DNA of 64,000 bases from Squalus acanthias (taxonomy: Eukaryota). The notes beneath the pieces are model-generated. The model was not told where the DNA came from and ran no database searches. It saw nothing but the letters and a program-made list of their open reading frames with translations. The stretch's first letter is position 1. Every line of letters starts with the position of its first letter. Of the stretch, positions 300-63,925 are shown piece by piece. The DNA lies in NCBI GenBank assembly GCA_030390025.1, contig CM059425.1:239320001-239384000 (forward strand). Direction: 5' to 3'. The translations under genes were made by a program, and so were the position numbers.

Positions 300-516
300 G
301 ATGTGGAGATGCCAGTGTTGGACTGGGGTGGACAAATGTGAGAAGTTGCACAACACCAGGTTATAGTCCAACAGTTTTATTTGAAATCACAAGCTTTCGG
401 AGCGCTGCTCCTTCTTCAGGTGAAGTGAAGAGATGTGACGAAGGAGCAGCGCTCCGAAAGCTTGTGATTTCAAATAAAACTGTTGGACTATAACCTGGTG
501 TTGCGCGACTTCTCAT
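300..516. mobile_element. Penelope-like pLTR-derived inverted-dimer insertion (family 1) with hammerhead motif
   Basis: 80-bp inverted arms 339-418/436-515; 12-bp direct repeat gtttccaatcaa at 288-299 and 517-528. Confidence 0.75.
387..423 (-). ncRNA. Minimal type I hammerhead ribozyme motif (predicted)
   Basis: Minus strand ucac-CUGAAGA-a-ggagc(agc)gcucc-GAA-AGCU-U/guga: 4-bp stem I, 5-bp stem II, palindromic AGCU in place of stem III; predicted cleavage between 391 and 390. Confidence 0.7.
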
Positions 517-5236: not shown

Positions 5237-5374
5237 GCTACTCCATGTGGTAGCAAGTTCCACATTCTAACCACTAACTGGGTAAAGAAGTTTCTCCTGA
5301 ATTCCCTGTTGGATTTATTAGTGACTTTCTGATGTTGCATGCAGTCGTGCAGCATTTGGAATCATTGTCCAGCT

Positions 5375-6085
5375 CGGTGCGCTCTGTGGCGGAGCCGGGC
5401 TCGCGGGGCGCTGGGGAGGAGCCGGGCTCGCGGTGCGCTGGGGAGGAGCCGGGCTCGCGGCGCGCTGGGCAGGAGCCGGGCTCGCGGTGCGCTGGGCAGG
5501 AGCCGGGCGCGCTGGGCGCTGGGGAGGCGGCGGGCGCGTTGGGGAGGAGCCGGGCGCGCTGGGGAGGAGCCGGGCGCGCTGGGCGCTGGGGAGGAGCCGG
5601 GCGCGCTGGGCGCCGGGGAGGAGCCGGGCGCGCTGGGCGCTGGGGAGGCGGCGGGCGCGCTGGGGAGGAGCCGGGCGCGCTGGGGAGGCGCTGGGGAGGA
5701 GCCGGGCTCGCGGTGCGCTGGGGAGGAGCCGGGCTCGCGGTGCGCTGGGGAGGAGCCGGGCTCGCGGGGCGCTGGGGAGGAGCCGGGCGCGCTGGGCAGG
5801 AGCCGGCGCGCTGGCGCTGGGGAGGCGGCGGGCGCGTTGGGGAGGAGCCGGGCGCGCTGGGGAGGAGCCGGGCGCGCTGGGGAGGCGCTGGGGAGGGAGC
5901 CGGGCGCGCTGGGCAGGAGCCGGGCGCGCTGGCGCTGGGGAGGCGGCGGGCGCGCTGGGGAGGAGCCGGGCGCGCTGGGGAGGCGCTGGGGAGGAGCCGG
6001 GCGCGCTGGGGAGGAGCCGGGCGCGCTGGGGAGGAGCCGGGCTCGCTGGGGAGGAGCCGGGCTCGCTGGGCGCCGGGGAGGAGCT
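5375..6085. repeat. GC-rich, CpG-dense variable minisatellite
   Basis: About 30 shuffled units of GGGGAGGAGCCGGGCGCGCT, with variants GGGCTCGCGGTGCGCT, GGGCAGGAG and GGGGAGGCGGCGGGCGCG. Confidence 0.95.
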
Positions 6086-6309
6086 GGAAGTATTAAATCG
6101 ATTGGTTGAAGCAGACCAGTTGAGCAGGGGTGATTTTTTTGTTTAATTGTCTTTTTCCATAGGCTTGTCAACAACTTGTTGAGCGCATAGCATGTCTTGT
6201 CTCTTGACATGAAATGCCAATGTTCAACGTTGTATGCAAAATCTCAAAGAATTTTAAAAAGCATTATAACTAACTTGCCTGTAGTAATGCCACTGACAGC
6301 AGTTCTGAA

Positions 6310-8228
6310 TACTACAACTTGCATTTATATAGCGCTTCACAGGAGTGTGTTAAAACAAATTTTGAAACTGAGCCCCATGAGCAATTCGGGCAGATGGAGG
6401 TTGGTTTTAAGGCGCATCTTAAAGGAGGTAAGAGAGGCGGAGAGGTTTAGGGAGGGAATTCCAGAGCTTAGGGCCGAGGCAGCTGAAAGCACAGCCACCA
6501 ATAATTGAGCAATTAAAATCAGAGATGTGTAAGAGGCCAGAATTAGAGGAGCGCAGATATCTCAGGGTGGGGGGCGGTTGTGGGGCTGGAGGAGATTAGA
6601 GATAGGGAGGGGCGAGGCCATCGAAGGATTTGAAAACAAGGAGGAGAATTTTAAAATCGATGCGTTGCTTAACTGGGAACCAATGTAGGTCAGCGAGCAC
6701 GGGGTGATGGGTGAACAGGACTTGGCAAGAGTTCGGTCACAGGCAGCCGAGTTTTGGATGACCTCTAGTTTACGTAGGGTAGAATGTGGGAGGCCAGCCA
6801 AGAGTACATTGGAATAATCAAGTCTAAAGGTAACACAGGTATGGATGAGGATTTCAGCAGCGAATGAGCTGAGGCAGGGGTGGAGATGGGCATTGTTACG
6901 GAGGTGGAAATGGATGGTCTTAATAATGGCGCAGATATGTGGTCGGAAGCTCATTTCAGGGTCAAATATGCCATCAAGGTTGTGAACAGACTTGTTCAGC
7001 CTCACAGATGCTAGGGAGAGGGATGGATGGAGTAGATGACTAGGGAATGGAGTTTGTGATGGGGACCGAAGACAATGGCTTCGGTCTTCCCAATATTTAA
7101 TTGGAGAAAATTTCTGCTCATCCAGAACTGGATGTCGGACAAGCCGTCTGACAATTTAGAGACTGTGGAGGGGTCGAGAGAAGTGGTGGTGAGGTAGAGC
7201 TGGATGTTGTCAGCGTACATGTGGAAACTGACACTGTTTTTCGGATGTTGTCGCCGAGGGGCAACATGTAGATGAGAAATAGGAGGGGGTCGTGGATAGA
7301 TCCTTAGGGGACACCAGAGGTAACGATGCGGGAGCGGGAAGAGAAGCCATTGCAGGTGATTCTCTGGCTACGATTAGATAGATAGAATGGAACCAGGCGA
7401 GTGCAGTCCCACCCAGCTGGACAACACGGTCCAGCACGGTGGCATAGTGGTTAGCACTGTTGCCTCACAGCGCCAGGGACCCGGGTTCGAATCCGGCCTC
7501 GGGTGACTGTCTGTGTGGAGTTTGCACATTCTCCCCGTGTCTGCGTGGGTTTCCTCCGGGTGCTCCGGTTTCCTCCCACAGTCCAAAAATGTGCGGGTTA
7601 GGTTGATTTGGCTATGATAAATTGACCCTTAGTGTTAGGGGGGGATTAAATATGTGGGGTTACGGGGATAGGGTGGGATATGTTAGGGGGAATTAAATAC
7701 GTGGGGTTACGGGGATAGGGTGGGATATGTGTCGGTGCAGGCTCGATGGGGATTCTGTGTGGGAAAGCAGGGACAGGGTACTGGATTTGGATGATCAGCC
7801 ATGATCGTATTGAATGGTGGAGCAGGCTCGACGGCGAATTGCCTATTCCTGCTCCTAGTTTCTATGTTTCTATGTTTCTACAACGGTGGCAAAGCGTTTG
7901 GAGAAGGATGGAGTGGTCGACAGTATCAAAGGCTGCCGACAGGCTGAGAAGGACGAGGAGGAATAGTTTACCTTTATCATAGTCACAAAGGATGTCATTT
8001 GTGACTTTGATAAGAGCCATTCCGGTACTGTGGCAAGGGCGGAATTCTGATTGGAGGGATTCAAACCTGGAGTTCTGGGAAAGATGGGCACGGATTTGGG
8101 AGGCGACAGCATGTTCAAGGACTTTGGAGAGGAAAGGGAGGTTGGAGATGGGGCGGTAGTTTGCAAGGATGGCGGGGTCGAGGATTGGTTTTTTGAAGAG
8201 GGGTGATGACGACAGGTTTGAAGGAGAG
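6310..8228 (-). mobile_element. L2 LINE 3' portion, interrupted by HE1 SINE
   Basis: Peptides YADNIQLY, WMSRNFLQLNIGKTE, HLRNNAHL...RLDYSNVLLAGLP; L2 tail gcgctatataaatgcaagttgt on minus strand. Confidence 0.9.
7433..7879 (+). mobile_element. HE1-type V-SINE (tRNA head, V domain, CR1-derived tail)
   Basis: A box tggcatagtgg, B box ggttcgaatcc, V core gtggagtttgcacattctccccgtgtctgcgtgggtttcctccgggtgctccggtttcctccca, tail of ctatgttt repeats. Confidence 0.88.
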
Positions 8229-26894: not shown

Positions 26895-29800
26895 TAGCAT
26901 TCCTCAGGGCAGTGTCCTAGGCCCAACCAGCTTCAGCTGCTTCGTCAATGACCTTCCCTCCATCATAAGGTCAGAAGTGGGGATGTTCGCTGGTGATTGC
27001 AGTGTTCAGTTCCATTTGCAACTCCTCAGATAATGAAGCAGTCCGTGCCCACATGCAGCAAGACCTGGACGACATTCAGGCTTGGGCTGATAAGTGGCAA
27101 GTAATTCACACCACACAAGTACCAGGCAATGACTGTCTCCAACAAGAGAGTCTAACCACCACCCCTTGACATTCAACGGCATTACCATCACCAAATCTCC
27201 CGCAATCAACATCTTGGGGGTCACCATTGACTAGAAACTTAACTGGACTAGCCACATAAATACTGTGGCTACAAGAGCAGATCAGAGGCTGGGTATTCAG
27301 TGGCAAGTATCTTATCTCCTGACTCCTCAAAGCCTTTCCACCATCTACAAGGCTAAAGGGGGTGCATGAACAGAGACCTAGGGGTGTATGTGCACAAATC
27401 GTTGAAGGGGGCAGGTTGAGAAAGCGGTTAAAAAAGCATACAGGATCCTGGGCTTCATAAATAGAGCCATCGAGTACAAAGGCAAGGAAGTTATGATGAA
27501 CCTTTTATAAGCATAGAAAAAAATAGGAGCAGGATTAGGCCATTCGGCCCTTCGAGCCTGCTCCGCCATTCAATATGATCATGGCTGATCCTCTATCTCA
27601 ATACAGGAAACTCTTTATTAACCGGCACCGACGGGACCGGCGTGGTGCCGGTTAATCAAAAAGTCCGGATAATGGAGAGTTATATCTCCCAACGTACGAG
27701 AGCCCCGTACACATTGGCATGCGCCTGCATTCAGAGCTCCGTCTCCCCGGGGACCGCCAGCTGACCATCTGTCGTGTCCGCTGCCTACCCGGGCTGCACA
27801 TTCCCCTCCCAATCTACATGCTCCGATACAAGGCAAACGCCTCGGTTTTTTTAAAGTTATTTTTAAAGGAGAGATGAAGGAAAACCCCGGTTACCTACTC
27901 AAGAATTTTGCCGGTTAAGAGAGATTTCCGGTTATTTGGGTGCCGGTTAAAAGAGTTTCCTGTACCATATTCCTGCTCTCTCCCCATACCCCTTGAAGCC
28001 TTTTGTGTCTATAGAAGCATAGAAAAATAGGAAAACACTGATCCGACCTCAGCTGGAGTATTGTGTCCAATTCAGGGCACCGCACTTTAGAAAGGATGTG
28101 AAGGCCTTAGCGAGGGTGCAGAAAAGATTTACAAGAATGGTTCCAGGAATGCAGGACTTCAGTTACGTGGATAGCCTGGAAAAGCTTGGGCTGTTCTCCT
28201 TGGAGCAGAGAAGGTAGAGAGGAGATTTGATAGGTGTTCAAAATCATGAGGGGTCTCGATAGAGTAGATAGAGAGAAACTGTTCCAATTGGCGGAAGGGT
28301 CGAGAACCAGAGGACACAGATTTAAGGTGATTGGCAGAAGAACCAAAGGCGACATGAGGGAAAACTTTTTTACGCAGCGAGTGGTTAAGATCAGGAATGC
28401 ACTGCCTGAAAGGGTGGTGGCGGAAGATTCAATCATGGCTTTCAAAAGGGAAAGTCCAAAAATGTGTGGGTTAGGTTGATTTGGCTATGATAAATTGACC
28501 CTTAGTGTTAGGGGGGATTAAATATGTGGGGTTATGGGGATAGGATGGGATATGTTAGGGGGAATTAAATACGTGGGGTTACGGGGGTAGGGTGGGATAT
28601 GTGTACTGTGGGGATTAAAGCAGGGACAGGGTACTGGATTTGGATGATCAGCCATGATCGTATTGAATGGCGGAGCAGGCTCGACGGGCCGAATGGCCTA
28701 CTCCTGCTCCTAGATTCTATGTTTCTATGTTTCTATGGAATTGGATAAGTACCTGAAGGAAAAACATTTGTAGGTCTATGGGGAAAGGGCGGGTGAGTGG
28801 GACTAGCTGAAGTGCTCTTCCGTGGCACGGGCTCGACGAGCCGAATGGCCTCTTTCTATGCTGTAACTATTCTATGATTCTAAGTCAGGAGTGTGATGGC
28901 ATATTCTCCACTTGCCTGGATGAGTGCAGCTCCAACACCCAAGAAGCTCGACACCATCCACGACAAAGCACCCCGTCCACCACCTTAAACATTCACTCCC
29001 TCCACAATCTGCGCACTGTGACTGCAGTGTGTACCATGCACTGCAGCAACTCGCCAAGGCTTCTTCGACAGCACTTCCCAAACCTGCGACTTCTACTGCC
29101 TAGAAGGACAAGGACAAGGGCAGCAGGCGCATGGGAACACCATCACCTCCAAGTCAATGGGAACAGTTTCTCTCTGTCTACTCTGCCTAGACCCCCTCAT
29201 GATTTTGAACACCTCTAGCAAATCTTCTCTGCTCTAAGGAGAATAACCCCAGCTTCTCCAGTCTATCCATGTAACTGAAGTCCCTCATCCCTGGAACCAT
29301 TCTTGTAAATCTTTTCTGCATCCTCTCAAACCTTCACATCCTTCCGAAAGTGCGGTGCCCAGAATTGGACACAATACTCCAACTGCGGTCGAACCAGTGT
29401 TTTATAAAGGTTTATCATAACTTCCTTGCTTTTGTACCCTATGGCTCTATTTATAAAGCTCAGGATCCTGTATGCTTTTTCAACCGCTTCTCAACCTGCC
29501 CTGCCACCTTCAATGATTTGTGCACATACACCCACAGGTCTCTCTGTTCTTGCACCCCCTTTAGGATTGTACCCTTTCATTTATATTGCCTCTCCTCGTT
29601 CTTCCTACCAAAATGTATCACTTCGCACTTTTCTGCGTTAAACTTCAGCTGCCATGTGTCTGCCCATTTCACCAGCCTGTCTATGTCCTCTTGAAGTCTA
29701 TCCCTATCTTCCTCACTGTTCACTATACTTCCACGTTTTGTGTCATCTGCAAATTTTGAATAGTGCCCTGTACACCTAAGTCCAAATATATCAAGAAAGA

Positions 29801-36055: not shown

Positions 36056-36084
36056 GTAAGTAAACCTTGTTTTGTCTAACTATG

Positions 36085-36160
36085 ATGCGGAGATTTTAGT
36101 AATTTTAGTAATTTTAAATAAATCTGTTGGACTATAACCTGGTGTTGTGTGACTTCTCAT
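36085..36160. mobile_element. PLE family-1 mini-insertion
   Basis: Starts (g)atgcggagat like 300 and 50880, ends ctgttggactataacctggtgttgtgtgacttctcat; TSD gtctaactatg at 36074-36084 and 36165-36175. Confidence 0.72.
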
Positions 36161-36554
36161 TTTCGTCTAACTATGTTTGTGATCAAATGAAGAGCTGCTC
36201 ATGACCAAAAATGAGTGTGGGGTTTTTAAAGCCATCTATCCAGATTTCTAAGTACTCAACCTAACATTTTCAGAAGTGTTATTTTTTTAAATTTGTTTTT
36301 ACAGTAATCTGAGATGTGACGTGGACTTTCAGACAGATTTTTATCCAGTAACTTTGTTCTCTGCGTCACTGGTCCTTGATCTTCCCTTAGCACCCCACTG
36401 CACTCCTAAGCTCCCACCTCAAACTCAATTGAACCATGGAATGGCTTCTGCCCTGTTGGTATGCAATAATACCTAAAGCATTCAATTTGTGTTCGACCCT
36501 CAGTGTACATATCTAAAAGTATTGCCAAATTTGTGGTGTCCCACAATGCACCAT

Positions 36555-39008
36555 AAGAACATAAGAAATAGAGCAGGAATAGGCCACTTGGCCCCTCGAG
36601 CCTGCTCCGCCATTCAATAAGATCATGGCTGATCTTGGGCTCAAAGCCACTTCCCTGCCCGCTCCCCATAACCCTTCACTCCCATATCTTGCAAAAATCT
36701 GTCTGTCTTCACTTTAAATGTATTTAATGACCCAGCCTCCACAGCTCTCTGGGGCAGAGAATTCCACAGATTTACGACCCACTGTGAAGAAATTCCTCCT
36801 CATCTCAGTTCTAAAAGGGCAACCCTTTATTCTGAAACTATGCCCCCGAGTTCTAGATTTCCCCACTAGGGGAAACATCCTCTCTGCATCTACCTTGTCG
36901 AGCCCCCTCAGTATCTTATGTTTCAATAAGATCACCTCTCATTCTTCTAAATTCCAATGAGTATAGGCCCAACCTGCTCAACCTTTCCTCATAAGTCAAC
37001 CCCCTCATCTCGGGAATCAACCGAGTGACTCGTCTCTGAACTGCCTCCAATGCAAGTACGTCCTTCCTTAAATAAGGAGACCAAAACTGTACGCAGTACT
37101 CAAGGTGTGGTCTCACCAATACCCTGTACAGTTGTAGCAGGACTTCCCTGCTTTTATATTCCAATCCCCTTGCAATAAAGGCCAACATTCCATTTGCCTT
37201 TTTGATTACTTGCTGCACCTGCATGCTAACTTTTTGTGTTTCATGCACAAGGACCCCCAGGTCCCTCTGAACTGTAGCATTTTGTAATCTCTCTCCATTT
37301 AAATAATTTGCTTTTTTATTTTTCCTGCCGAACTGGATAACCTTGCACTTTCCCACATTATACTCCATCTACCAAATGTTTGCCCACTCACTTAGTCTGT
37401 CTATATCCCTTTGCAGATTCCTTGAGTCCTCTACACAACTTGCTTTCCCACCCATCTTTGTATCATCCGCAAACTTGGCTACATTACACTCGGTCCCTTC
37501 ATCCAAGTCATTAATGTAGATTGTAAATAATTGGGGCCCCAGCACCGATCCCTGTGGCACCCCACTCGTTACCGTTTGCAACTGGAAAATTACTCATTTA
37601 TCCTGACTCTGCTTTCTGTTAGTTAGCCAATTCTCTATCCATGCTAATATATTCGTCTCATGAAGAAAGTAAGGAGTTGTGGGATAGAGGGAAATTTGGC
37701 CGATTGAGTAAGTAACTGGCTATCTCATAGAAGGCAGAGGGTGGTGGTGGATGGAACATTTTCGGACTGGAGACCAGTTACCAGCGGTGTGCCACAGGGG
37801 TCGGTGCTGGGTCCTCTGCTGTTTGTGATTTTTATCAATGACTTGGAGGAGGGGACTGAAGGGTGGATCAGTAAATTTGCTGATGACACCAAGATTGGTG
37901 GAGTAGTGGATGAGGTGGAGGGCAGTTGTAGGCTGCAAAGAGACATTGATAGGATGCAGAGCTGGGCCGAAAAATGGCAGATGGAATTTAACCCTGATAA
38001 GTGCGAGGTGATTCATTTTGGTAGGGCAAATTTGAATAAGGATTACAGGGTCAACGGCAGGGTTCTGAGGAACGTGGAGGAGCAGAGGGATCTGGGGGTT
38101 CATATCCACAGATCTCTGAAGGTTGCCACTCAAGTGGATAGAGCAGTAAAGAAGGCCTATGGTGTGTTGGCGTTTATTAACAGAGGGTTTGAGTTTAAGA
38201 ACCGTGAGGTTATGCTGCAACTGTACAGGACCTTGGTGAGACCACATTTGGAATATTGTGTGCAGTTCTGGTCACCTCACTATAGGAAGGACGTGGAAGC
38301 ATTGGAAAGCGTGCAAAGGAGATTTACCAGGATGCTGCCTGGTTTGGGGGGGGGAGGTCTTATGAGGAAAGATTGAGGGAGTTGGGGCTTTTCTCTTTAG
38401 AGCGGAGGAGGATGAGAGGCGACTTAATAGAGGTTTATAAGATGATGAGGGGGAGAGATAGAGTGGATGTTCAGAGACTATTTCCTCGGGTAGAGGCAGC
38501 TGTTACAAGGGGGCATAACTATAAGGTGCATGGGGGGAGATATAGAAGGGATGTCCGAGGTAGATTCTTTACTCAGAGAGTGGTTGGGGTGTGGAATGGA
38601 CTGCCTGCTGTGATAGTGGAGTCGGACACTTTAGGAACTTTCAAGCGGTTATTGGATAAGCACATGGAGCACACCAGAGTGATAGGGAGTGTGATAGCTT
38701 GATGTTGGTCTCGGACAATGCTCGGCACAACATCGAGGGCCGAAGGGCCTGTACTGTGCTGTACTGTTCTATGTATCTATGTATTACCCCCAACTCCGTG
38801 AGCTCTTATCTTATGCAGTAACCTTTTATGTGGCACCTTATCGAATGCCTTCTGGAAATCCAAATACACCACATCCACTGGCTCACCCTTGTCCACCCTG
38901 CTCGTTACATCCTCAAAGAACTCCAACAAATTTGTTAAACATGATTTCCCTCTCATAAAACCATGCTGACTCTGCTTGACTGCATTATGATTTTCCAAAT
39001 GCCCTTCT
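36555..39008 (-). mobile_element. CR1 (-) interrupted by CR1 (+, 37654-38781, TSD tatt)
   Basis: ORFs 36916..37368 and 37369..37581 (-), 37741..38376 and 38373..38702 (+); host continuity ctaatatatt|acccccaac as in the copy at 51680-51705. Confidence 0.92.
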
Positions 39009-45500: not shown

Positions 45501-46625
45501 GGTCTGGAGCCGAGTGGTCTTGGCGGAACCCGAACTGAGCATCGGTGAGCAGGTTATTGGTGAGTAAGTGCCGCTGGATAGCACTGTCGACGACACCTTC
45601 CATCACTTTGCTGATGATTGAGAGTAGACTGATGGGGCAGTAAATGGCCCGATTGGATTCCTCCTGCTTTTTGTGGACAGATGTGAGAAGTCGCACAACA
45701 CCAGGTAAATCATCCTTGACTACACCAGGTTATAGTCCAACAGCTTTATTTGAAATCACAAGCTTTCGGAGCGCTGCTCCTTCGTCAGATGTGGACAGGA
45801 CATACCTGTGCAGTTTTCCACATTGTTGGGTAGATGCCAGTGTTGTAGCTGTACTGGAACAGCTTAGCTAGTTCTGGAGCGCAAGTCTTCAGCATGATGA
45901 CCAGGATGTTGTCGGGGCCCATAGCCTTTGCTGTATCCAGTGCGCTCAGCCGTTTCTTAATGTCACATGGAGTGAATCAAATTGGATGAAGACTGGCTTC
46001 TGTAATGGTGGGGACCTTAGGAGGAGGCCGAGATGGATCATCCACTTGGCACTTCTGGCTGAAGATGGTTACAAACGCACTTGCATGGTGAGTCCCGCCA
46101 TCATTGAAGATGGGGATGTTCTTGGAGCCTCCTCCTCCCCCCGTTAGCTGTTTTATTGTCCACCACCATTCACGACTGGATGTGACAGGACTGCAGAGCT
46201 TTAATCTGATCTGTTGGTTGTGAGATCACTTAGCTCTGTCTATAGAATGCTGCTTCTGCTGTTTAGCATGCATATAGTCCTGTGTTGCAGCTTCCCCAGG
46301 TTGGCGCCTCATTTTTAGGTACGCCTGGTGCTGCTCCTGGCATGCTCTTCTACACTCCTCGTTGAACCAGGGTTGGTCCCCTGGCTTGATGGTAATGGTA
46401 GAGTGAGGGATATGCCGGGCCATGAGGTTACAGATTGTGGTGGAATACAATTCTGCTGCTGCTGATGGCCCACAGCGCTTCATGGATGCCCAGTTTTGAG
46501 CTGCTAGATCTACTCTGAATCTATCCCATTTTAGCACGGTGGTAGTGCCACACAGCACGATGGAGGGTGACCTCAGTGTGAAGAAGGGACTTCATCTCCA
46601 CAAGGACCGTGCGGGATTTCGTCTC
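42503..46625 (-). mobile_element. LINE-B (-) interrupted by CR1 (+, ~42901-43304), CR1 (+, ~43495-44864) and a PLE insertion (45681-45789)
   Basis: Host continuity against the 3915-5236 copy; ORFs 43248..43907, 43967..44530, 44542..44781 (CR1) and 45055..45405, 45406..45696, 46226..46558 (LINE-B). Confidence 0.88.
45681..45789 (-). mobile_element. PLE family-1 single-arm insertion with intact hammerhead core (45757-45791)
   Basis: 9-bp TSD tgtggacag at 45672-45680 and 45790-45798; minus strand cau-CUGACGA-a-ggagc(agc)gcucc-GAA-AGCU-U/gug. Confidence 0.75.
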
Positions 46626-50419: not shown

Positions 50420-52690
50420 TCATAACACAAGAACATAAGACATAGGAGCAGGAGTAGGTCATTTGGCCCGTTGAGCCTGCTCCACCATTCAATAAGATCA
50501 TGGCTGATCTGATCTTGGCCTCAACTCCACTTCCCTGCCCGCTCCCCATAACCCTTGACTCCCTTATCGTTCAAAAATCTGTCTATCTCCACCTTAAATA
50601 TATTCAATGACCCAGCCTCCACAGCACTCTGGGGAAGAGAATTCCAAAGATTCATGACCCTCTGAGAGAAGAAATTCCTCCTCATTTCCGATTTAAATGG
50701 GTGCCCCCTTATTCTGAAATGATGCCCCCTAGTTCTAGATTCCCCCACGAGGGGAAACATCCTCTCTGCATCTACCCTGTCAAGCCCCTTCAGAATCTTA
50801 TATGTTTCAATACGATCCCCTCTCATTCTTCTAAAGTCCAATGAGTATAGGCCCAACCTGCTCAACCTTTCTTCATAAGGTGGAGATGCCGGTGTTGGAC
50901 TGGGGTGGACAAATGTGAGAAGTCGCACAACACCAGATTATAGTCCAACAGCTTTATTTGAAATCACTGATTTCAAATAAAGCTGTTGGACTATAACCTG
51001 GTGTTGTGCGACTTCTCACATTTCTTCATAAGATAACTCCTTCATCTCCGGAATCAACCTCGTGAACCTTCTCTGAACTGCCTCCAATGCAAGTATATCC
51101 TTCCTTAAATAAGGAGACCAAAACTGTGTGCAGTACTCCAGGTGTGGTCTCACCAACACCCTGTACAGTTGTAACAGGACTTCCCTACTTTTATACTCCA
51201 TTCCCTTTGCAATAAAGGCCAACACTCCATTTGCCTTCCTAATTACTTGCTGTACCTGTATGCTAACTTTTTGTGATTCATGTTCAAGGACCCCCAGATC
51301 CCTCTGTACCTCAGCATTTTGTAATGTCTCCCCATTTAAAAAATAATTTGCTTTTTTATTTTTCCTACCAAAGTGGATAACCTTGCATTTTCCCACATTA
51401 AACTCCATCTGCCAGATTTTTGCCCACTCACTTAGCCTATCTATATCCCTTTGGAGATTTATTGCGTCCTCCACACAATTTGCTTTCCCACCCATATTTG
51501 TATCATCAGCAATTTTGGTTACATTACATTCGGTTCCTTCATACAAGTCATTAATATAGATTGTAAGTAGTTGAGGCCCCAGCACTGATCCCTGTGGCAC
51601 CCCACTAGTTACAGTTTGCCAACCTGAAAATGACCCATTTATCCAACTCTCTGTTTTCTGTTAGTTAGCCAATCCTCTATCCATGCTAATATATTACCCC
51701 CAACCCCGTGAGCTCTTATCTTATGTAGTAACCTTTTATGTGGCACCTTATTGAATGCCTTCTGGAAATACAAATACACGACATCTACTGGTTCCCCTTT
51801 ATCCACCCTGCTCATTACATCCTCGAAGAACTCCAGCAAATTTGTCAAACGTGATTTCCCTTTCATAAAACCATGCTGACTCTGCTTGACTATATTATGA
51901 TTTTCTAAATGTCCTGCTACCACTTCCTTAATGATGGACTCTAGCATTTTCCCAATGACAGATGTTAGGCTAACTGGTCGATAGTTGCCTACTTTCTGTC
52001 TTCCTCCTTTTCTTAAATAGGGGCGAATTGTTTGCGGTTTTCCAGTCCGCTGGGACCTCTCCAGAATCCAGGGAATTTTGGTACATTACAACCAATGCAT
52101 CCACTATCTCTGCAGCCACCTCTTTTAAGACTCTTGGATGCAGGCCATCGGGTCCAGGGGACTTGTCCACCTTTTAGTCCCATTAGTTTGCCTAGTACTT
52201 TCTTTCTAGTGATAGTGATTGTTTTAAGTTCCCCCCCCCCCCCCCCCCCCCACCCCAATAGGCCCTTGATTATCCATTATTGGGATGCTTTTAGTGTCTT
52301 CTACCGTGAAGACGATACAAAATATTTGTTCAAAGTCTCCGCCATTTCCCTGTTTCCCATTATTAATTCCCCAGACTCATCCTCTAGGGGGACCAGCGTT
52401 TACTTTAGCTACTCTCTTCCTTTTTATATACCTGTAGAAGCTCTTACTGTCTTTTTATATTTCTTGCTAGCTTACTCTCATAAGCTATATTCTCTCTCTC
52501 TCTCATTTTTTTAGTCGTCCTTTGCTGGTTTTTAAAAATTTCGCAATCCTCTGGCCTTCCACTATTCTTCGCAACATTGTATGCTTTTGTTTTCAATTTG
52601 ATACCATCCTTTACTTCCTTAGTTAGCCACGGATGGTTCATCCTTCTCTTAGAGTCTTTATTTCTCACTGGAATATATCTTTGCTGAAAG
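50420..52690 (-). mobile_element. CR1 LINE, ~2.2 kb, 5'-truncated
   Basis: ORFs 50521..50928, 51016..51600, 51639..51947, 51970..52170, 52444..52668. Confidence 0.93.
50880..51020. mobile_element. PLE family-1 near-perfect palindromic insertion within CR1
   Basis: 56-bp arms 50911-50966/50968-51023 (1 mismatch) around c50967; 12-bp TSD tttcttcataag at 50868-50879 and 51021-51032. Confidence 0.82.
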
Positions 52691-61014: not shown

Positions 61015-63925
61015 CATAGGATTACATAGGGTATACGGCACAGAAGCAGGCCATTTGGCCCAATCAGTCCATGCCGGCGTTTGTGCTCCACTCGAGACTC
61101 CTCCCGTCTTTCCTCATCTAACCCTATCAGCATAACCCTCTATTGCCTTCTCCCTCATAAGGTTATCTAGCCTCCCCTTAAATGCATCTATACTATTTGC
61201 CTCAACTACTCCTGTGGCAGCGAGTTCCACATTCTCACCACTCTCTGGGTAAAGAAGATCCTTCTGAATTCCCTATTTGATTTCTTGGTGACTATCTTAT
61301 ATTGATGGCCTCTCGTTATGCTCTTCCCCACAAGTGGAAACATTCTCTCTGTATCCACTCTATCAAAACTGTTCATAATTTTAAAGACCTCTATTAGGTC
61401 ACCCCGCAGCCTTTTTTCAAGAGAAAAGAGACCCAGCCTGTTCGTCCTTTCCTGATCAGTATACCCTTGCATTTCTGGTATCCTCCTTGTAAATCTTCTC
61501 TGCACCCTCTCCAGTGCCTCTATATCCTTTTTATAATATGGCGACCAGAACTGCACGCTGTACTCCAAGTGTGGTCTAACCAAGGTTCGATACAAGTTTA
61601 GCATAACGTCACTACTTTTTAATTCTATCCCTCTAGAAATAAACCATCGTGCCTGGTTTGCTTTTTTTATGGCCTTGTTAGCCTGTGTCGCTACTTTTAG
61701 TGATTTATATAAGAAATAGGAGCAGGAGTAGGCCATTCGGCCCCTCAAGCCTGCTACGCCATTCAACAAGATCATGGCTGATCTGATCTTCGCCTCAACT
61801 CCACTTTCCTGCCCGCTCCCCATAACACTTGATTCCCCTGTTTTTCAAAAATCTGTCTATCTCCGCCTTGAATATATTCAATGACTCGGCCTCCACAGCT
61901 TTCTGGGGTAGAGAATTCCAAAGATTCATGACCCTCAGAGAAGAAATCCCCCCTCATTTCTGATTTAAATGGGTGCCCCTTATTCTGAAACTATGCCCCC
62001 TAGTTCTAGATTCCCCCACGAGGGGAAGCATCCTCCCTGCATCTACCCTATCAAGCCCATTAGAATCTTATGTTTCAATAAGATCACCTCTCATTCTTCT
62101 AAACTCCAATGAGTATATGCTCAACCTTTCCTCATAAGACAACCCTTTCAACTCAGGAATCAACCTAGTGAACCTTCTCTGAACTGCCTCCAATGCAAGT
62201 ATATCCTTCCTTAAATAAGGAGACCAAAACTGTACGCAGTACTCCAGCTGTGGTCTCATCAACACCCTGTACAGTTGTAGCAAGACTTCCCTACTTTTAT
62301 ACACCATCCCCCTTGCAATAAAGGCCAATATTCCATTTGTCTTCCTAATTACTTGCTGTACCTGCATGCTAACATTTTGTGCTTCATGTACGAGGACACC
62401 CAGATCTCTGTACCACAGCATTCTGTAGTCTCGCTCCATTTAAATAATATTTTGCTTTTCTATTTTTCCTACCAAAGTAGATAACCTCACATTTTCCCAC
62501 ATTATACTCCATCTGTCAAATTTTGCCCACTCACTTAACCTATTTGTGTATTTGTACACCAAGATCCCTTTGCTCCTCTACCCCACCCAGACTCTCACCC
62601 TCCAAGTAATAAGTGACCTCCCTATTCTTCCTACCAAAATGTAATTCCTCACATTTATCTGTTGAATTTAATTTGCCAGTTATATGCCCATTCTGCAAGT
62701 TTATTAATGTCTTCCTGTAATTTGTTGCAGTCCTCCTCAGTATTAACTATCCCCCCCAATTTGGTATCATCTGCAAATTTAGAAATTGTGTTTTTGATTC
62801 CAAAGTCTAAATCGTTAATATTAATTGTGAACAACAGTGGTCCCAGCACTGATCCTTGTGGAACACCACTATCCACCTTCTGCCACTGTTAATAGCTACC
62901 CTTTACCCCTATACTCTGCTTTCTGTCTTGAAGCCAGCTAGCTATCTATTCTGCTACTTGTCCCCTGACTCCGCATTCTCTGACCTTATTCATTAGTCTA
63001 TTATGTGGTACCTTATCGAAGGCCTTTTGAAAATCTAGATAAATTACATCTACTGCATTACCCTTGTCTATTCTCTCTGTTATCTCTTCAAAAAATTCAT
63101 TGAGGTTGGTCAAGCAGGACGTTCCCTTTTGAAATCCATGCTAATTATTCATGATTATTTTTGGCTTCTAGATATTCTTCTGTTGTCGCCTTTAGTAGGG
63201 ATTCCATTATTTTTCCTACAACTGATGTTAAGCTGACTGGTCTATAGTTCACTGGACATGTTCTATCTCCCTTCTTAAATATAGGTATTATGTTAGCAAT
63301 CTGCTAGTCCTCTGACACTACACCTTTTTCTAATGAATTATTAAATATGTGTAGTAATGCCTCTGCTATCTCTTCCCTAGATTATTTTAAAATGCGCGGA
63401 TGTAATCCATCCGGATCAGGGTTTTTTTTCCTCTTTGCGTTTGATTAGTTTATTTAATATATCTCCCCTTTTATTTTAAATGCAGTTATTTCATTACTAA
63501 TCTCATGATCCAATGTCATGTCCACCTGTTCTATCTCCCTGGTAAATACTGAAGCAAAGTAATTATTTAATATTTCTGCCATCTCCCTATCGTTACCTGT
63601 GGTATTATCCTATCCATCCCCTAGTGACCCTATTCCCATCCCGACCTTTTTTTTTATTGATGTGCCTGTAAAATATTTTACTATTTTTTATGTTCCTTGA
63701 TAATTTAATTTCATAGTTCCTCTTTGTCTTCCCAATTTTTTTTGACTTCTCTCCTAATCCCTTTGTATTCTCTCTTATCATGCACTCCTCTGCTGTCTAT
63801 TTACCTAATGTATGCCTCTTTCCTTACCCTCAATTGTTCCCTTATGTCTTTCTTCATCCATGGAGTCTTATTAGTGTTTAGTTTGTTCTTTCCTTTTAGC
63901 GGAATCTATTTTTCCTGCACTCTGT
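61015..63925 (-). mobile_element. CR1 interrupted by another CR1 (~61708-62545)
   Basis: ORFs 61206..61823, 62068..62439, 62655..62876; host resumes ctacttttagtgattt|...|gtgtatttgtacacc. Confidence 0.88.

Follow-up and report, generated by a model that had tools for sequence, protein, structure and literature searches.

The palindromic insertion at 50868..51032 of the window, the stretch of 64,000 nucleotides from Squalus acanthias analysed here, was probably copied from an RNA that had already been cut by its own hammerhead ribozyme at CUU^GUG; judged from the sequence, the excess of arm ends over background gives about 55-75%. At the level of the family, cleavage in vivo is very probably real, but it appears to be a minor route. 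The initial annotation had proposed that these copies were reverse-transcribed from the self-cleaved 3' RNA product. This fits a minor class that ends at the cut, with host RNA joined there in some insertions, and it is not supported as a rule for the family. In the following, +1 is the G past the predicted cut CUU^GUG and -1 is U17.

Structurally, the palindrome is real. Its centre is a C at 50967, and 50914-50966 and 50968-51020 are reverse complements over 53 bp with 1 mismatch, while the arm length of 56 given earlier counts 3 T that also open the right TSD. The minus-strand arm opens at +1 with GTGATTTC, directly 3' of the predicted cut as first described, and the plus-strand arm opens at +2. 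Thus, the placing of the turn exactly at the cut is correct for one arm, but the turn as a whole is +1/+2 and not symmetric. The hammerhead is absent from the insertion, as had been stated. The left arm also carries a tail of 31–34 nt, a feature the initial annotation left unnamed, and the outer end of this tail would be the outer start of reverse transcription. That the 12-bp repeat is a genuine TSD follows from two paralogous LINE copies (36901-37090 and 62052-62233): aligned across the site, they carry a single, slightly variant copy of the word. The interrupted LINE is presumably CR1/L2-like, by its motifs. Two LINE-end copies (window 7592-7779 and 28464-28651) share one 47-nt tandem unit, and a GC-rich tandem array of 20- and 27-nt units occupies window 5342-6105.

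Table 1. Features of the insertion and of its siblings in the window.
Feature	Position	Strand	Remark
Left TSD, 12 bp	50868..50879	+	TTTCTTCATAAG
Penelope tail (+55 to +88), one arm only	50880..50913	-	
Tail-bearing arm, +1 to +54	50914..50967	-	begins at first base past predicted hammerhead cut
Blunt head-to-head junction (+1 / +2)	50967..50968	.	microhomology 0, inserted bases 0 (gap 0)
Inverted arm, +2 to +54	50968..51020	+	
Right TSD	51021..51032	+	TTTCTTCATAAG again
Host LINE fragment holding the insertion	50432..52300	-	approximate bounds
Two-armed sibling retaining the hammerhead	302..515	.	arms end at -45 and -28
Intact ribozyme in the 302..515 sibling	387-423	-	predicted cut between 391 and 390
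Sibling of a diverged subfamily	36085..36159	+	10-nt tail stub, 9-nt duplication, arm from +1 (36108)
11-bp TSD of the 36085..36159 sibling	36074-36084 and 36165-36175		
Single-arm sibling	45680..45788	-	ends at -29, internal duplication inside

The siblings had been brought in as parallels. The arm at 36108 indeed opens at +1; it follows the 9-nt duplication and has the tail stub as its partner. A cleavage site had also been predicted in 45757-45791; this copy ends at -29, so the 5' strand of its stem I is target DNA and the ribozyme there is not intact.

The insertion is the stub of a Penelope element that is Neptune-like in its sequence features and abundant. A 31-nt word of the arm has at least 15,094 exact matches genome-wide (the filter drops some). 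In locus L252, a frame of 446 aa, upstream of hammerhead, arm and tail, matches Pfam RVT_1 (E 1.8e-8), and a C-x4-C-x2-C linker is present in L251, L252 and L253. Pieces of the N-terminal ORF were found only in L008 and L029. The Pfam scan gave no GIY-YIG match; reading by eye, we take VVYLIRC...W(H/Y)IGET in the ORF to be a GIY-YIG-like C-terminal end. RT, linker and this GIY-YIG-like end, seen by eye, match the Neptune-type arrangement in the accessible sections of PMC8557442, where the clade has a CX2-5CxxC linker between RT and EN. Further likenesses to the EN+ Penelope-like elements outlined in PMC3846280 and PMC8557442 are head-to-head 5'-truncated arms, a TSD, a 30–40-nt tail on one arm, a TATA and a TCACT-type Inr in the pLTR, and an RT whose C-terminal domain, putative in the present family, is of GIY-YIG type. 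Among 60 sampled loci, we find the inverted 5'-truncated pLTR, the tail on one arm and TSDs of mostly 12–13 bp. Taken alone, the palindrome at 50868..51032 is an ordinary member of this known layout. The family is present in the four assembled contig sets examined, although contigs cannot show RNA ends; the 24 listed RNA-candidate runs are all assembled contigs, most merely guessed to be RNA.

The cut site was examined in 101 ribozyme copies chosen on the core pattern; these copies are related, so the counts are not independent events. Within the core only N7 varies (C74 G17 T7 A3), and H17 is U93 C7 A1, never G. The second pair of stem I is C-G in 78 copies, T-A in 15 and T-G in 5, that is, it covaries. 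All nine pairs of stems I and II are preserved in 96–101 of the 101 copies, loop II varies freely, and stem III is a self-complementary six-base word. The predicted cut U17^G (CUU^GUG) that was proposed at the outset is accordingly backed by a covarying minimal hammerhead, and we regard it as a sound prediction. The Rfam scan of the window did not detect the hammerhead motif, and its miRNA matches were rejected as a product of the hairpin shape of the palindrome.

The minimal dimeric PLE hammerheads of PMC4209133 share with these copies the CUGANGA/GAAA core, the extra base before stem II, G10.1-C11.1, the palindromic stem III, the 4-bp stem I and the existence of covarying families. According to the accessible sections of that paper, activity in vitro is low and evidence in vivo is lacking, whereas the present genome holds in vivo evidence of an indirect kind. 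What hammerheads do in Penelope elements that carry an endonuclease is described as unclear in the corresponding parts of PMC8557442.

Most copies do not end at the cut. A general sample of 60 loci of 10 kb each, taken from the listed matches up to C1:16.5 Mb with an exact anchor at +4..+34, contains 130 arms (two of the loci are duplicates). Their 5' ends fall at -36 in 20 arms, over -36..-30 in 56 and at +1 in 2, and 97 of the 100 first-listed arms extend past the cut. Thus, the sharp truncation peak that was expected at U17^G as a rule of the family is not found: the dominant end is -36..-30 and the cut is a minor peak with about 1% of arms. The base at -36 is the A in TCACTTC and, in the copy that was checked, lies 30 nt behind TATATA; this TATA/Inr-like context makes it the likely start of transcription. 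An extra C after -36 (12 of 20, p ~0.006) was considered as a copy of the cap and set aside as only suggestive, since C is often a possible first base of the partner arm. A junction of -36, two extra bases and -17 recurs in 5 of the 60 loci (L121, L122, L133, L137 and L140).

The 3' ends of the same 130 arms form two clusters, +52..+55 (48 arms) and +86 or +89 (57 arms). They match the two RT start sites bounding the tail in Poseidon PAc of Anolis (PMC11167929), a lizard element for which, in the available parts of the paper, two start sites and cutting of both strands are described in vitro. There, unprocessed RNA is the main substrate and cleavage is dispensable in vitro, and RNA-seq is reported to give no reads with a start or an end at the cut. 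In contrast, the family studied here has an insertion class of about 1% that ends at the cut, and its ORF carries the Neptune-type Cys linker.

Is there then a real excess at the cut? Ends were counted genome-wide with one 26-nt anchor plus two non-consensus letters past the stop, and all rows are listed. Arms stopping at +3, +2, +1, -1 and -2 give 43, 66, 88, 38 and 31 matches, and 42, 51, 85, 32 and 26 when run-on mutants read by hand are dropped (1, 15, 3, 6 and 5); duplicated rows were kept (5 identical at +2, about 4 at +1). The count at +1 is 2.25 times the mean of its four neighbours (85 vs 38, p ~8e-9), and still 2.1 times without junctions of at least 3 nt microhomology. The share of arms at +1 is about 1%, with a denominator from a slightly longer anchor. 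In the sister subfamily, 145 arms end at +1 against 47 at -1 (6 run-ons among the 47). Stem I offers 4-nt microhomology there between +1 and -33, seen in about 21 of 100 listed +1 rows, which leaves roughly 110 (+1) against 41 (-1). The local excess at the cut is hence present in two subfamilies. In addition, the letter next after +1 is T in 65 of the 88 matches; for -1 and +3 it is T in 34 of 75 (p 2e-4). From the neighbour counts, roughly 30–45% of the +1 ends are background. Insertions with both arms short were considered as proof of co-cleavage; this was rejected, as arms ending at -2 behave alike, their partners, read by hand, lying mostly near the cut too, so that near-symmetric partners are not peculiar to +1.

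The ends near the cut could also come from an uncut template. Reverse transcriptase would have stalled at the folded ribozyme, where the 3' strand of stem I is +1 to +4, and end-joining would have fixed both stalled cDNAs. As such a stall predicts, +2 and +3 are raised alongside +1, above -1 and -2, and ends in short palindromes accumulate over +1..+7 (99 insertions). Uncut RNA is moreover the main template here and, in the accessible account of PMC11167929, in vitro. For the copy at 50868..51032 taken singly a stall has some room, but it leaves the T bias at +1 unexplained, as well as the joined RNAs described below, and overall we judge it unlikely.

The turn points of short palindromes bear on a second alternative. 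There are 921 palindromes with a centre of 12–42 nt between the anchors, and 2,067 with a medium centre. We called the turns in the first 100 of the 921 rows, which represent 99 insertions. Microhomology is present at the turn in 54 of the 99, and the commonest single turn is the stem III word at -6 (10 exact). One palindrome alone therefore proves little, because short palindromes turn at many points, more than half of them with microhomology. A longer palindrome with both ribozymes might have lost its centre, during joining or later, with a turn at +1/+2 by chance; the microhomology, the preferred turn at -6 and the abundance of short- and medium-centre palindromes all agree with such losses. 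However, the turns of the 45 insertions free of microhomology concentrate at +1 or +2 (33 of 90 ends). The junction at 50967 belongs to this blunt +1/+2 class, and the exact junction occurs 7 times in the 3.7-Gb genome, at separate sites and with different TSDs. Loss of the centre is for these reasons improbable, more so than a stall. Templated insertions are frequent at the junctions, a pattern we assume to be typical of polymerase-theta end-joining.

Evidence for a cut template at the level of the family also comes from host RNA joined exactly at +1. In six insertions (L345, L346, L347, L272, L358 and L303), sense 18S rRNA ending at nt 1380 stands directly before +1. The rRNA is on both arms in four of the six, 10 arms in total; its identity is supported by an Rfam SSU match. 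In L303 the rRNA is only 5 and 8 nt long, and in L272 it carries two substitutions. The joints lie inside TSD-flanked insertions, and host 18S and element share 1 nt at the joint, leaving a 1-nt ambiguity. Microhomology with 18S as the cause of the joint was rejected, being 1 nt only. The TSDs differ among the six. A single rRNA-carrying master copy was rejected as well, since subfamily letters also differ and ten matches that continue as rRNA carry no insert at the joint, though rDNA may be under-assembled. Searches permitting other junctions returned 4 of 4 and then 5 of 5 matches at +1, and no 18S piece was found in the zone of the main 5' end, where most arms end. Nucleotide 1380 is the 3' end of a predicted 7-nt hairpin loop of 18S.

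Other RNAs are joined at the same position. In L263, 5' halves of tRNA-Leu(CAA) precede +1 on both arms, one with a 5' leader that resembles that of the intron-bearing tRNA-Leu(CAA) genes of the host; both junctions miss the splice site by one base, so this is not clean splice-site ligation. Pieces of the element's own ORF are joined to +1 in L008, L029 and L336. In L279 and L298, oligo-A sits exactly inside the predicted cut, with the 5' part and the 3' part intact on either side, which looks like the rejoining of a tailed 5' product. L273 has a 42-nt piece between arms at +1 and +2 without an Rfam match, which may be another captured RNA. The host-RNA searches covered one rRNA word and one tRNA. 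A 13-mer scan of 586 arms, a set enriched for +1 loci, found 18S or tRNA pieces only at +1, and no U6 chimera was seen by eye among 31 rows of arms ending at -2. An Rfam scan at gathering level over 12 control loci (+2/-1) gave no match; it is insensitive and also missed three known chimeras. ARAGORN reported no tRNA without the intron option; with the option switched on, it found tRNA-Leu(CAA) in two loci (L284, L287) and tRNA-Ala in L283. Intron-bearing tRNA-Leu(CAA) genes also form tandem arrays with a period of about 1,155 bp at C13:49.37-49.40 Mb, C575 and C3704 (167 matches in all).

The 18S, tRNA, ORF-piece and oligo-A joints all call for a physical RNA end at +1. A stall on uncut RNA does not account for one 18S end meeting exactly +1 with 1-nt homology in six insertions, nor for the oligo-A inside the cut. 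Cut RNA as a template, as first suggested, is in this respect supported for the family. The +1 end is likely a 5'-OH joined by an RtcB-type ligase; the chimeras are absent at the presumed capped end, which favours 5'-OH ligation as in PMC6789731. From the loop-C end of 18S and from hammerhead chemistry, the donor would carry a 2',3'-cyclic phosphate and the acceptor a 5'-OH. The oligo-A and tRNA cases could be template jumps of the RT. In the accessible parts of PMC6789731, U6/LINE-1 chimeric retrocopies made by RtcB similarly have host RNA joined without homology to the 5' end of a retroelement RNA, and the chimera was subsequently retrotransposed and is flanked by a TSD. In those retrocopies the donor end (U6) is fixed and the L1 end variable, while here both ends are fixed and the ligation itself is what we infer; the donor here is 18S rRNA or pre-tRNA, and the acceptor is the predicted product of a ribozyme.

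We suggest that the copies could have arisen as follows. The putative GIY-YIG nuclease of the element would make two nicks about 12 bp apart. Reverse transcription would be primed at each nick, starting from the tail end (~+88) for one cDNA and from the inner site (~+54) for the other, usually on the same RNA. Both cDNAs would extend to the 5' end of this RNA, and host end-joining would link their two 3' ends head to head. Most templates would be uncut transcripts starting about 36 nt upstream of the cut, and most copies would thereby keep the ribozyme. About 1% of the templates would be cut, leaving a 5'-OH at +1. To some of these cut RNAs, broken 18S rRNA or pre-tRNA would be attached ahead of copying, the RtcB-type ligase being the most likely agent. 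The model of PMC3846280, as given in its accessible sections, is self-priming on an antisense template, whereas the present data agree with two primings on sense templates.

At +16, the two arms of an insertion have the same letter in 205 of 226 pairs; after shuffling, 82 pairs agree (some loci are perhaps counted twice). Together with the chimeras on both arms, this concordance favours one template for both arms. A single shared template is not universal: of the 9 informative pairs, 6 have arms that differ in loop II. The sharing of variants, and of rRNA on both arms in four of six chimeras, would also be expected if one cDNA from a cut RNA had snapped back and been copied, and several +1 junctions resemble a short hairpin turn onto +5/+6. 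However, a minimum hairpin loop exceeds 1 nt, which the turn here would be. Either arm may be the longer one at the 5' side, and 36085-36159 pairs a 10-nt tail stub with a longer partner. The arms further end at one of two fixed 3' positions, which match the two RT start sites described for the lizard element (PMC11167929). We therefore give such a snap-back very little credence, the least of the alternatives; the literal fold-back first described is unlikely for a 1-nt turn, and head-to-head joining of two cDNAs would fit better.

The distribution of ends argues that the ribozyme is active in vivo and yet is not the normal maker of the template 5' end. The family supplies numbers for this: the templates that were integrated are mostly uncut, about 1% of them are cut, and host RNA is present at the cut in a few. 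Somewhat better than evenly balanced is the wider reading that Penelope hammerheads cut in the animal germ line, that host tRNA ligase joins the 5'-OH product either to 18S rRNA with a break at one loop or to halves of pre-tRNA, and that one such RNA, copied from both target nicks, gives both arms. If true, the ribozyme cleavage rate (~1% of templates) of each subfamily would be recorded, in dated form, by the arm ends of tens of thousands of copies. The chimeras on both arms also constrain how the long-puzzling inverted pLTR arises. Against the literature on EN+ Penelope-like elements, as far as its accessible text goes (PMC3846280; PMC8557442), the layout is already known; the differences are that ends are counted genome-wide here and that the main end is the promoter start and the minor end the ribozyme cut. 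New here are the minor class, with its counts, and the junctions with rRNA at the cut. A literature search, in which subscription titles are thinly covered, brought up no description of PLE insertions that end at the cut, nor of rRNA attached at that point.

Finally, non-LTR retrozymes, in the available descriptions (PMC7229834; bioRxiv 2026.07.22.740005), are alike in their type I hammerhead and their tie to PLEs, and RtcB joins hammerhead products in vitro. However, retrozymes are head-to-tail tandem repeats that make circles. A tandem retrozyme reading was rejected, as the insertion and the 60 sampled loci are all head-to-head pairs or single arms. The inverted layout extends to ORF-bearing copies: at L252:4596-8460 the arms are about 2 kb each and include RT-coding sequence. 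In L269 and L278, head-to-tail repeats occur within the arms, suggesting repeated priming or slippage.
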